Below are positions 11,572-60,526 of a DNA stretch of 64,000 nt, piece by piece. This DNA is from Lingula anatina. Its lineage: Eukaryota; Animalia; Brachiopoda. A program made the translations under genes and the position numbers. The notes under the pieces are model-generated. The model saw only the letters and a list, made by a program, of their open reading frames with translations, did no database searches and was not told the DNA's origin. Location: assembly GCA_051362555.1 (NCBI GenBank), contig CM120645.1, positions 1 to 64,000 of the forward strand, read 5' to 3'. The stretch's first letter is position 1. Each line of letters begins with the position of its first letter.

Positions 11572-12112
11572 CAGTTAACGCCCACTCTTGGAATGCTGTA
11601 TCAACCACTGTAATGTGATATCTGAAATATAATAAATTAACAGTTAACGCCCACTCTTGGAATGCTGTATCAACCACTGTAATGTGATATCTGAAATATA
11701 ATAAATTAACAGTTAACGCCCACTCTTGGAATGCTGTATCAACCACTGTAATGTGATATCTGAAATATAATAAATTAACAGTTAACACCCACTCTTGGAA
11801 TGCTGTATCAACCACTGTAATGTGATATCTGAAATATAATAAATTAACAGTTAACGCCCACTCTTGGAATGCTGTATCAACCACTGTAATGTGATATCTG
11901 AAATATAATAAATTAACAGTTAACGCCCACTCTTGGAATGCTGTATCAACCACTGTAATGTGATATCTGAAATATAATAAATTAACAGTTAACACCCACT
12001 CTTGGAATGCTGTATCAACCACTGTAATGTGATATCTGAAATATAATAAATTAACAGTTAACGCCCACTCTTGGAATGCTGTATCAACCACTGTAATGTG
12101 ATATCTGAAATA
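11572..12112 (-). repeat. 69-bp tandem repeat x8 containing the ARL8 last acceptor, terminal coding segment and stop codon
   Basis: Units start at 11572, 11641, 11710, 11779, 11848, 11917, 11986 and 12055. Confidence 0.97.
12058..12104 (-). CDS. ARL8: ARL8 terminal coding exon (first of 8 tandem copies)
   Basis: tttcag|AT ATC ACA TTA CAG TGG TTG ATA CAG CAT TCC AAG AGT GGG CGT TAA. Which copy is used is inferred. Confidence 0.85.
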
Positions 12113-13851
12113 TCAGAAATAACAAATTGTCAAAAATTCTAAACAACTTAAAAAACAATTTTAGAAGACAAGCAATACAAGTACAATACAAAAAAATTAT
12201 AAACATGTTTGTTAAATTCTTTTTTTTTTTTTTTTTGAGACATACATATCAAAATAGCTCTACTAACAGAGGCTCATTATCATTAAAAATTAAACCTCGT
12301 GTTACATGTTTTGTTTGTGGACAGCTGATATTGTGTAAAATGTTATACAAACCCCAAGGCTTTTTTCTTTAAAAATAGTTAATAGAATGATCAATTCCAG
12401 TGCCTAGGTGTGAAGTACAGATGTACCCATCTTTTGTTTTTTTGAAGTAATGACAGTTATGAAAATTTTTTATTTATTTTTTAAATTTTTTTTCCATCTA
12501 AACTTACCTATATTTTCCTTTTCTTTACATGAGATTGAGTAACAACAAATTTCCCTATCTTGGATGGCTGACAAATTCCTGAAATTAAAGAAAATATCAC
12601 AGGAGAGAAACCAAATAATGTTAGTATATAGAGATGCAATTCTTCTGTTTGACAAACTGAACGCTGGTGACTGGCAGGCAATTTAAATATGGTGAAAAAT
12701 TTATGTCCACATTCATTACTACCAACTTTTTTTCAAATCTAAAGTCACTGTGAAGTGTCTGGCACATCAGAAGAAGTGGTCACAGTTCCTCCAAGCCTCC
12801 CTCACTTACATTCTTTCTATCAATTGTTTCTCATCCAGAGCACCTGGCAGGTCCCTCTTGTTGCCCAGAACTAGGACAGGAATACCCTGGAGCTGAGGCT
12901 TGTCCAGCAAATTATGAAGCTCATTTCTTGAGGCTTCCACTTTATCCTGGTCTGCAGCATCTACCATATACCTGGAAATATCAACAGACTATTTCAACAT
13001 TCTACTTCTTTATCTATACAACACTACACCATATACCTGGAAATATCAACAGACTATTTCAACATTCTACTTCTTTATCTATACAACACTACACCATATA
13101 CCTGGAAATATCAACAGACTATTTCAACATTCTACTTCTTTATCTATACAACACTACACCATATACCTGGAAATATCAACAGACTATTTCAACATTCTAC
13201 TTCTTTATCTATACAACACTACACCATATACCTGGAAATATCAACAGACTATTTCAACATTCTACTTCTTTATCTATACAACACTACACCATATACCTGG
13301 AAATATCAACAGACTATTTCAACATTCTACTTCTTTATCTACACAACACTACACCATATACCTGGAAATATCAACAGACTATTTCAACATTCTACTTCTT
13401 TATCTACACAACACTACACCATATACCTGGAAATATCAACAGACTATTTCAACATTCTACTTCTTTATCTATACAACACTACACCATATACCTGGAAATA
13501 TCAACAGACTATTTCAACATTCTACTTCTTTATCTATACAACACTACACCATATACCTGGAAATATCAACAGACTATTTCAACATTCTACTTCTTTATCT
13601 ATACAACACTACACCATATACCTGGAAATATCAACAGACTATTTCAACATTCTACTTCTTTATCTACACAACACTACACCGACAACAGCACCGGGCTCAC
13701 TATAACTAGACTTTTCTCAGACAAACCATTCCATTCAACAAGATCAGTGACATCTGACAAAAAACTGGTATTCTACATTTTAAAGCAAACATCATTTGGC
13801 TTATGAGAAATATGTGAGCATTCATTTCCAGGAAAAGTGTGTGTGTGTGTG

Positions 13852-13905
<54 letters not shown>

Positions 13906-58112: not shown

Positions 58113-58236
58113 CTATACCTCTGCAGTACATTCACGGGCAAAGTGACCATAACCTTCACACTTGCGGCACTGGACATCCCTCTTGGCATCTGAGGCACCG
58201 GGACAGTCCCTGGAATAGTGACCGGCCTCTCCACAC
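58113..58236 (-). CDS. CNBP: CNBP-like coding exon 4
   Basis: [40 protein letters not shown]. Confidence 0.85.
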
Positions 58237-60526
58237 CTAGAAGGATGATTTTTGGTGATGAAAATACTTCAAAACATGGACTATCTACACCTAAGAGGAT
58301 GAAAAATGGCGATGAACATACTTCAGAATATGCATTCTCCACACCCAAGACAAGAGGGTGAATAATAGGGATGAAAATATCTAAAAAAAACTATTAGTTG
58401 CCTGCCATTGTATTGGCTCAATCAATGTAATACATTTAGAAATAAGCAGAAGATCTTACGTGTAACAGGTGTCACCACCACCCCCTCCACTGGGGCAGTC
58501 ACGGGCAAAGTGACCATTATTGCCACAGTTGTAACATTTGCTGCTCCTCCTTCCAGTGCTGCCTTCATACTGGGCCTCGGGGCAATCCCGTGCCATGTGG
58601 CCCTCTTGCTGACAGTTGTAGCATCGGGCCCCGCCAGTGTCGCTGTGGGCCTCGGGACAATCACGAGCAATGTGGCCCTCTTGCTGGCATTTATAGCAGG
58701 TCTTACTGCCCTCTGGTGGGGCGTCGGGGCAGTCTCGCTTCAGGTGACCACTTTTTCCACAAGTGTAGCAGGCACCTGTAAAGATACAATCCATGATTTT
58801 AACATAAACACACAATCATTTCTAAACTAATACGCTTTAAACTGTATCAAGAAGTAGAGTAGAATCTGTGTTCTTCATAAGCAAGACTGAGCTAAATGAC
58901 ATAAATTTCCTCATGGAGTATAAGCTGGGCAATCAGGCAGTTAATATGGGAGAAATTATCTATGTGTGCATAAGTGTATGTGTGCATGTGTGAAGTGTAT
59001 GTGTGCATGTGTGAAGTGTGTGTGTGCATGTGTGAAGTGTGTGTGTGCATGTGTGAAGTGTATGTGTGCATGTGTGAAGTGTGTGTGTGCATGTGTGAAG
59101 TGTGTGTGTGCATGTGTGAAGTGTGTGTGTGCATGTGTGAAGTGTATGTGTGCATGTGTGAAGTGTATGTGTGCATGTGTGAAGTGTGTGTATAAGTGTA
59201 TGTGTGCACGCGTGTTTGTGCAGTGAGTGTGTGTATAAATGTGTGTGTGCATATGTGTGTGTTTGTGCGAAGTGTGTGTGTGCATGTGTGTGTTTTTGCG
59301 AAGTGTGTGCGTGTGTGACACTGAAAGTGCAGTTGGACAAACACTTCTGCTGCATATACCCTTTGTTATCAATATCAATAATTTCCAAGATAAATAAGTC
59401 AATAGTTTCTAAAGAAAATAACTGGATGTGTAATTTCTTACATACATCTTCTACATCTTCAAGAGGATTTAATACCAACCATCACAACATAAATCAGTTA
59501 TGAGATCAAGACCCACTGTCAACACTACACCAGGGGCATCTCACAACTCATTTTATTAATATTTTCCTGATGTGCTAAAATCATCTGGATTAAGTTTAAA
59601 TACCAAAAAGAAGAAGATTATCATCAGTGGTCAAATAATTTATTTCATGTTAACAAGAGATCAACAAACCTGACTCAATTTCTTTGGGGCAGTCCTTAGC
59701 GATATGGCCTAGCTGGTTACACTTATAGCAGCGGTCCGACTCCTCTCTGCACTCGTAGGCATAATGACCATAGCTGTTACAGCGGTAACACTTCTCTAGA
59801 ACAGGTAGAGGGGGGAGGTTTACTTAACTGAGACAGTTTTCAGCTTGAAGATCCTTTTTAGAGTGGATTTAGAACAGATGATCTGCTGACTTACTGATCT
59901 GAGGAGTAAGTACGGCTGACCCCACATGAAAGGAAGCTGCTTAATCTACAATGGTCTCACTGCCTCCAAACATGCCATTAATGGATTAAATCTCAGCTCC
60001 ACGGTTTAATTGCCAGGCCCCTGCTGGGACGACGTGTGTGGAGGCGGGGAGACCATCAGGGGATATTATAAGCAGCTACTATAGTACCCTTTATGTGGGG
60101 TTGGCCATATTTAGTCTGCGGATCATCTATTCTGAATGCGGTCTAAGACTTAATCTTCTTTTAAAACCATTTCCAGAAACAAAGTAAAAAGTTGCCCTCT
60201 CATAATGGTGTGACTTAAAACAGTTGTATTTTTTTTTTTTTTTGTATTCCTACTTCATCATTTCCTACAGTCACAAAACTAGTAAAAGATTGACTTTTTT
60301 ACATGCATCTGAATGTCAATTTCAGCTTTTCATACAAATTATGGAAATGAATGTGAGTTAGTTGTGATCTGCTGGTCTTACCCCCACGTCGCCCTCCAAA
60401 GCCCCCTCTTCTACCACGTCCTCTCCCGCTAAAGGTACGACCACCACCTCCGCGCCCGCCACCTTCATTCCCACACTCCCTTGCAAAGTGGCCAGGTCGT
60501 CCACATTTGTAACATACATTTGACAT
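58113..60526 (-). CDS. CNBP: CNBP/ZNF9-like CCHC zinc-knuckle nucleic-acid-binding protein, 236 aa, 9 knuckles plus an RGG region
   Basis: Exons 60526-60382, 59795-59670, 58775-58460 and 58236-58113 sum to 711 nt in phase. [18 protein letters not shown], an RG-rich linker, then eight more CX2CX4HX4C motifs. Orthology is inferred from this architecture. Confidence 0.88.
58228..58350 (-). repeat. Degenerate ~54-bp repeat (~2.3 copies) spanning the CNBP last acceptor
   Basis: tcatccttctag|GTGTGGAGA (true site), tcatcctcttag|GTGTAGATA and ...cttgg GTGTGGAGA at ~54-bp spacing. Confidence 0.7.
58460..58775 (-). CDS. CNBP: CNBP-like coding exon 3
   Basis: Four complete knuckles, [15 protein letters not shown]...[14 protein letters not shown]. 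Confidence 0.92.
58962..59318. repeat. TG-rich 21-bp minisatellite / degenerate microsatellite
   Basis: Unit gtgcatgtgtgaagtgt(a/g)tgt. Confidence 0.93.
59670..59795 (-). CDS. CNBP: CNBP-like coding exon 2
   Basis: [41 protein letters not shown]. Confidence 0.92.
59859..60147. mobile_element. Palindromic MITE, family B (copy 2)
   Basis: Inverted arms ttagagtggatttagaacagatgatctgc.gact / agtctgcggatcatctattctgaatgcggtctaa; similar to 10014-10420. Confidence 0.7.
60382..60526 (-). CDS. CNBP: CNBP-like coding exon 1
   Basis: [48 protein letters not shown]. Confidence 0.92.

Follow-up and report, generated by a model that had tools for sequence, protein, structure and literature searches.

Mirage-like tandem arrays at exon-intron boundaries of four adjacent genes near a chromosome end of Lingula anatina

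The mirage minisatellites of amphioxus were reportedly described by Canestro et al. in 2002, as cited by later papers. The term covers minisatellite-like duplications of intron-exon boundaries; according to PMC3087553, the affected genes are spliced normally, the arrays are unstable in length, and the mechanism of their birth is called unclear. The genes concerned are Adh3, the globins BflGb6 and BflGb9, troponin C, and PGBD5 (PMC3087553; troponin C and PGBD5 are added by PMC3902484). Here, we describe seven tandem arrays of this kind in a window of 64,000 nucleotides from the brachiopod Lingula anatina (GenBank assembly GCA_051362555.1, contig CM120645.1, positions 1 to 64,000), where they lie in ARL8, CTSC, RBM17, and a CNBP-like zinc-knuckle gene. 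As in the amphioxus cases, the copies are tandem repeats of donor or acceptor boundaries, and several retain the AG or GT; the amphioxus units are 10–160 bp. The Lingula arrays differ from these in their brachiopod host, in the occurrence of seven arrays across four adjacent subtelomeric genes, one of them with 96 copies, and in one array whose unit takes in a whole last coding exon, which makes that array a control free of nonsense-mediated decay (NMD). No brachiopod mirage report was found in the literature searched; most subscription papers fall outside that search.

Three human loci offer further comparisons. In F7, a 37-bp variable number tandem repeat (VNTR) in IVS7 has its first unit across the exon-intron border, and of its 5–9 identical donors the most upstream alone is used; in-frame pseudo-sites are ignored too, as tested by mutation (PMC1557585). 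The donor arrays of RBM17 and ARL8 match this arrangement, whereas the five acceptor arrays of Lingula are its mirror case. CBS 844ins68 is a 68-bp duplication of an intron/exon junction in which the distal site is strongly favored and normal mRNA is made (PMC2630376), but it has two copies only as compared with up to 96 in Lingula, where a terminal exon is also involved. In the intron-18 VNTR of ABCA7 the unit starts with the donor GT; retention of one unit results in a frameshift and a premature stop, and VNTR length influences expression as well as skipping of the following exon (PMC5954066). No such length effect is seen in the Lingula reads, which come from ungenotyped animals. The kind of structure is therefore already known, and the value of the Lingula locus lies in its range and in one useful control.

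Gene models were built by hand (ARL8, RBM17, and the CNBP-like gene on the minus strand, CTSC on the plus strand), and arrays were called with Tandem Repeats Finder (TRF), six at default settings and the CNBP array only at relaxed settings. In all seven, a head-to-tail unit spans an authentic exon-intron boundary of the gene models, with the periods and copy numbers given in a preliminary description of this DNA. Five arrays are at acceptors. The ARL8 last-acceptor array (11572..12124, minus strand; 69 bp x 8.0) has a unit comprising 19 nucleotides of intron end and 50 nucleotides that include the complete last coding exon and its stop, with the boundary AG/AT (the slash marks the junction); the 3'-most acceptor is at 11621, and the native intron end is retained in the 5'-most copy. 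The AG is intact in all 8 copies, and all 8 encode the full C terminus (six end in KSGR and two in KSGC). The ARL8 exon-4 acceptor array (12963..13680, minus strand; 65 bp x 11.0) combines 56 intron and 9 exon nucleotides around AG/GT, with the real acceptor at 12971 and 11 intact copies. The CTSC exon-4 acceptor array (37331..41560, plus strand; 44 bp x 96.1) has 27 nucleotides that match the exon start and an intact AG in 96 copies; unit spacing is 44 in 94 of 95 gaps, and the frame is preserved in the last copy (41534) alone. The RBM17 acceptor array, at the third coding exon (53240..54380, minus strand; 105 bp x 10.9), has 73 intron and 32 exon nucleotides around AG/AA, 11 intact copies, and the real acceptor at 53271. 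The CNBP-like last-acceptor array (58224..58388, minus strand; 54 bp x 2.9) is decayed, with 71% matches and two intact AG copies, the real acceptor 58236 and a lone decoy at 58290.

The other two arrays are at donors. The RBM17 donor array, at the first coding exon (55035..55170, minus strand; 40 bp x 3.4), has three copies with an intact GT and its real donor at 55155. The ARL8 exon-2 donor array (21253..22206, minus strand; about 29 bp, degenerate) consists of a TRF block at 22018–22206 and a sister block at 21253–21788, interrupted by a 228-bp insertion (21790–22017); the GT is intact in the real donor (22196) and in four far copies, which retain AAA/GTAAGT. Identity varies between arrays from 71% to 99%. 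The earlier claim that the process is recurrent is supported. A BLAST comparison of 28 array units with the exons and their 30-nucleotide flanks found no additional array with a junction-spanning unit.

The four genes are otherwise intact, as had been described: the modeled introns start with GT at all 28 donors and end in AG at all 28 acceptors, and each of the four frames is open up to its stop (186, 470, 417, and 236 amino acids for ARL8, CTSC, RBM17, and the CNBP-like gene, respectively). The preliminary description had found by manual translation that intact decoy copies meet a stop within about 20 codons, and computation agrees, placing the first stop at codon 4 for ARL8 exon 4, 8–17 for CTSC, 19 for the RBM17 acceptor, 3 for CNBP, 8 for the ARL8 donor, and 3 for the RBM17 donor. 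One of the sites that it counted as six internal cases, that of CNBP, is a last acceptor, so that the decoy stop there has no downstream junction. Its statement that only the copy at the exon end keeps the frame holds by translation but not as a special trait. Selection for this property was considered and rejected because a duplicated acceptor has its last copy, and a duplicated donor its first, attached to the exon, so that frame retention is a geometric consequence of duplicating any stretch across a junction and not a matter of design.

Several repeats in the introns are related to these arrays or lie near them. A 36-bp x 57 array (14838–16869) resembles the 29-bp ARL8 exon-2 donor repeat (21253–22206) with a local score of 50, a value reached in 0 of 2000 shuffles (mean 17). 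Judged from this likeness, it may be an older offshoot of the donor repeat that lost the GT, and much of the 7.6-kb intron could derive from that repeat. The 36-bp array is broken up by a 4.1-kb element in ARL8 intron 2 (16872–21018) with 219-nucleotide terminal inverted repeats (93% complementary), and a residual copy is left at 21019–21057. An inverted relative of the 228-bp insertion in the donor array lies at 9169–9361 (85% over 177 nucleotides); the insertion looks like a small non-autonomous element. The acceptor of the 69-bp unit (11622–11643) is nearer to the ARL8 exon-3 acceptor (14583–14604; score 19) than to its own first copy (score 13); among 378 real acceptor pairs the top score is 14, from those same two ARL8 sites. 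The two sites may share an origin, or a template switch may have spanned 2.5 kb. CTSC intron 2 contains a 70-bp doublet (36174–36317), and a separate third copy (36676–36736; 98% over 61 nucleotides) ends 28 nucleotides before the exon-3 acceptor. The database model of Lingula CTSC, of 254 amino acids, lacks the first four exons and begins at exon 5, just past the 44-bp array.

Use of the copies was followed in steady-state RNA from five of the nine raw-read runs found under the species label, namely X1, X2, X4, and X7 for ARL8 (58, 42, 50, and 184 reads placed, respectively) and X1, X2, X7, and X8 for RBM17 and CNBP (139, 97, 211, and 227 reads). A joint was scored when supported by three reads from two starts within one run, so that decoy use of a few percent would escape. 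The reference stretches had only the edge units of the long arrays, and reads from all decoys therefore stack on one or two units. The comparison covers five arrays, the CTSC exon-4 and ARL8 exon-2 donor arrays lying outside it. At these five, and within these read limits, the listed spliced reads use only the exon-abutting copy. At ARL8 exon 4, 108 reads join exon 3 to the real acceptor 12971 (25, 8, 12, and 63 in X1, X2, X4, and X7), and in the same four runs there is no joint at the decoy 13036 and none that skips exon 4. In X1, X2, and X4, each run covers the intronic 65-mer units at a depth of about one fragment, which is comparable to stray reads in the adjoining introns. At the RBM17 donor, 69 reads are at the real site 55155, with no decoy joint among the matches listed, and at CNBP, where depth is low, 10 joint reads are at the real acceptor 58236 and none among the matches listed is at the decoy 58290.

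For the RBM17 acceptor array, the reference stretch contained the two 5'-most copies without the real exon, and use of the real acceptor is deduced from loose ends. The 28 joint reads land on these two copies, matching at most 32 shared letters, and at least 43 loose-end reads run on into the real exon. At position 54316, 29 of 29 reads among the matches listed have the base of the real exon and not that of the first-AG copy; therefore the first AG of the array is not the one used. In the ARL8 last exon, 87 reads (11, 12, 14, and 50 in X1, X2, X4, and X7) cross from a single unit into the unique 3' untranslated region (UTR), and 64 reads contain the joint with exon 5, with a short side of at most 50 letters, the exonic part of the unit. 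Three reads of X2 contain tandem 69-mer units, indicating that the array is present on at least one X2 allele, and the 10 joint reads of this run show the same pattern. These reads fit use of the 3'-most acceptor (11621). Because no copy of this exon gives a premature stop and yet single-unit mRNA is seen, the result points to a choice of copy made in splicing rather than by NMD removal, although the RNA animals are ungenotyped.

We consider it probable that the seven arrays are neutral mirage minisatellites that the spliceosome bypasses through ordinary exon definition. Minisatellites are born by slippage and grow by unequal exchange, and they are abundant in subtelomeres. The present window is a chromosome end, as it starts with a 6.3-kb telomeric hexamer array (1..6296, no strand; TRF period 6 x 1060). 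In a subtelomere this rich in repeats, duplications of 30–110 bp would be born often, with slippage at microhomologies as the probable cause, and unequal exchange would expand some of them. One exon edge stays intact, as geometry and translation show, and the remaining copies carry an exon stub only. The exon-abutting copy, to which the listed spliced reads at five arrays point within their limits, would be chosen across the exon, the nearest acceptor pairing with the downstream donor or with the 3' signals of the terminal exon, and the spare copies would be removed with the intron, leaving copy number free to drift. The deciding signal is likely to be downstream because the 5'-most acceptor copy, with the native intron end and 9–50 exon bases, is passed over. 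First-AG scanning would not be violated since every unit has its own acceptor and scanning would start at a branch point near the chosen copy; branch-like motifs precede the last ARL8 copy (at -23 and -16) and occur at -37 in CTSC and at -35 in RBM17. Exon length alone was rejected as the filter because the nearest decoys would yield exons of just 204–227 nucleotides. Exon definition would be the likeliest of the routes named in the preliminary description. The portrayal there of the situation as unusual is not supported, as lancelet mirages, F7 IVS7, and CBS 844ins68 behave alike.

Several observations weigh against this interpretation. A strict branch-point motif at a usable distance was not found for ARL8 exon 4 or CNBP, and the F7 work favors oriented scanning for donors (PMC1557585). 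Four joint reads map to the second 69-mer copy (12035) and match it over just 39–40 letters, too few for assignment. Depth is low, and in steady-state RNA the products of internal decoys would be masked by NMD. The RNA animals differ from the assembled animal, and an array may be missing or heterozygous in some of them; the 65-mer array has read support in X1, in X4, and partly in X2, and at least three 69-mer units are supported in X2 only. Finally, random birth does not explain a 2–3-fold excess of arrays at junctions, which is considered below.

The preliminary description had offered two other ways in which the decoys might be handled. One is that decoy use rises with copy number, NMD clears the products, and the arrays tune gene dosage. 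The stops within 3–19 codons after all internal decoys would suit such a role, decoy products would be hidden in steady-state RNA, and human ABCA7 shows retention of one unit with a premature stop together with length-dependent skipping of the next exon (PMC5954066). However, AT-rich intron sequence predicts decoy stops anyway, the reads at five arrays show no decoy joint and no ARL8 exon-4 skipping, and in ABCA7 VNTR length did not affect unit retention (PMC5954066). The ARL8 last-exon array, free of premature stops, still yields single-unit mRNA, and we regard dosage tuning as improbable. The other is stepwise removal of the arrays by recursive splicing at AG/GT ratchet points. AG/GT occurs in three of five acceptor arrays as compared with 6 of 28 acceptors in the window, and the ARL8 and CTSC units read CAG/GT, which prior to splicing agrees with U1 at 7 of 9 positions. 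The donors that splicing would regenerate are weak, matching U1 at 4, 5, and 4 of 9 positions as compared with 5–8 for the 28 real donors. The two remaining acceptor arrays lack the GT: in the ARL8 last and RBM17 acceptors the AG is followed by AT and AA, which makes recursive splicing impossible there, and both arrays are resolved without ratchet points. No intermediate was present among the matches listed, although polyA RNA is poorly suited to show one. Recursive removal of the arrays is accordingly very hard to credit. An origin of the arrays, or of their copy numbers, in assembly error has in its favor that array lengths are those of the assembly, only RNA runs being at hand, and that the database CTSC protein of Lingula lacks the part before exon 5. 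Such an error is highly improbable, given that RNA reads span tandem 65-mer and 69-mer units, that copies differ in a patterned way, with the same variant in every third 69-mer, that identity varies between arrays from 71% to 99%, and that one array is split by an insertion.

A further alternative retains harmless splicing but makes the placement of the arrays biased, exon borders being mutational hotspots for tandem duplication, as might result, for instance, from breaks or from pausing of the polymerase at exon edges. The comparison with chance, which the preliminary description had proposed to make genome-wide, was run within the window, which had itself been picked for the pattern; each array was collapsed to one unit, and the units were placed at random. 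Arrays of period 10 or more fill 39.8% of positions 10000–61400, and 25 of 32 arrays span no junction. On the unfiltered strict TRF list, 6 of 31 arrays span a junction as compared with 2.7–3.0 expected (P 0.042–0.065); with the CNBP array added, the count is 7 of 32 as compared with 2.8–3.1 (P 0.015–0.028). The lowest P values depend on post hoc filters, under which 7 of 23–28 arrays span a junction with 1.9–2.8 expected (P 0.002–0.016), or 6 of 27 with 2.1–2.7 (P 0.014–0.042). Overall, 6–7 arrays span a junction against 1.9–3.1 expected (P 0.002–0.065). Arrays within 40 nucleotides of a junction number 12 of 32 as compared with 5.5 expected (P 0.005; five distance cut-offs were tried), and among the non-spanning arrays 5 of 25 as compared with 2.1 (P 0.051). 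Five further arrays, at 14226, 22310, 43357, 49775, and 53002, start 13–38 nucleotides from a junction without spanning it. The 2–3-fold excess in this one chosen window, for whose choice none of the P values is corrected, suggests a hotspot without showing it.

Also relevant to a hotspot is an apparent 68-bp duplication at the ARL8 exon-4 acceptor in run X7 (12940..13007, minus strand), seen as an RNA joint at a place where the window assembly has no array. Four reads with four starts, all from this run, return from 13007 to 12940, a step of 68 bases backward, at a 7-nucleotide microhomology; they lie among about six intronic reads of X7, which is a more diverged animal. The unit, with 32 exon and 36 intron bases as compared with 9 and 56 in the window unit, would be a further duplication whose breakpoints differ. 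In one read, 66 letters flank the joint on each side, so that this read is unspliced at the duplicate. A genomic duplication is likelier, with a template switch the alternative. Tandem duplications arise also away from junctions, as X7 and X8 have 66-base tandem joints in the CNBP-like 3' UTR (56879–56944 and 57599–57664; 17, 20, and 3 reads) that are absent in X1 and X2. On this evidence, a mutational hotspot at exon borders is a tentative alternative that we hold to be unlikely. It is doubtful that the whole of a more far-reaching proposal holds, in which exon borders of Lingula are repeated birth hotspots, with one ARL8 acceptor hit as often as twice in separate lineages, and the spliceosome always takes the exon-abutting copy without NMD, passing as many as 95 near-identical acceptors and acting likewise at a terminal exon whose copies would all give a full protein.

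The gene identifications are as follows. ARL8 (12058..30937, minus strand) has six coding exons and 186 amino acids, with a Pfam Arf match and top PDB matches to ARL8A/B (E 1.7e-27). CTSC, dipeptidyl peptidase 1 (31073..46113, plus strand), has eight exons and 470 amino acids and is supported by Pfam; its last exon is 100% identical over 107 amino acids to L. anatina dipeptidyl peptidase 1-like, the runner-up among 738 matches having 80%. RBM17/SPF45 (48981..55900, minus strand) has 12 coding exons and 417 amino acids, with a G-patch and PDB matches to SPF45 (E 2.7e-11). It also has a 5' UTR exon with an approximate start, whose end at 55865 is backed by 26 joint reads, and the RBM17 exon numbers of the preliminary description were accordingly one too low. 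The CNBP-like CCHC zinc-knuckle gene (58113..61340, minus strand; 236 amino acids) has nine knuckles counted by eye, a glycine/arginine-rich start, and a Pfam match; the name is given by resemblance only, and orthology to CNBP is a candidate assignment. Two of the eight exon pieces searched, ARL8 exon 1 and a single exon of RBM17, had no Pfam family. The start codons of ARL8 and CTSC are head to head with 135 bp between them (30937–31073), which suggests a shared promoter.

With the ARL8 last-exon array, the choice of splice site can be told apart from NMD, because all copies of the array are in frame and the reads fit use of the 3'-most. On the practical side, gene models can be disrupted by arrays of this kind. 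If the junction excess holds genome-wide, it would bear on the birth of mirages, which PMC3087553 calls unclear, and on intron growth and gain. If exon borders are indeed hotspots, natural copy-number alleles would provide a ready series for testing the choice of 3' splice sites and the growth of introns from their edges.

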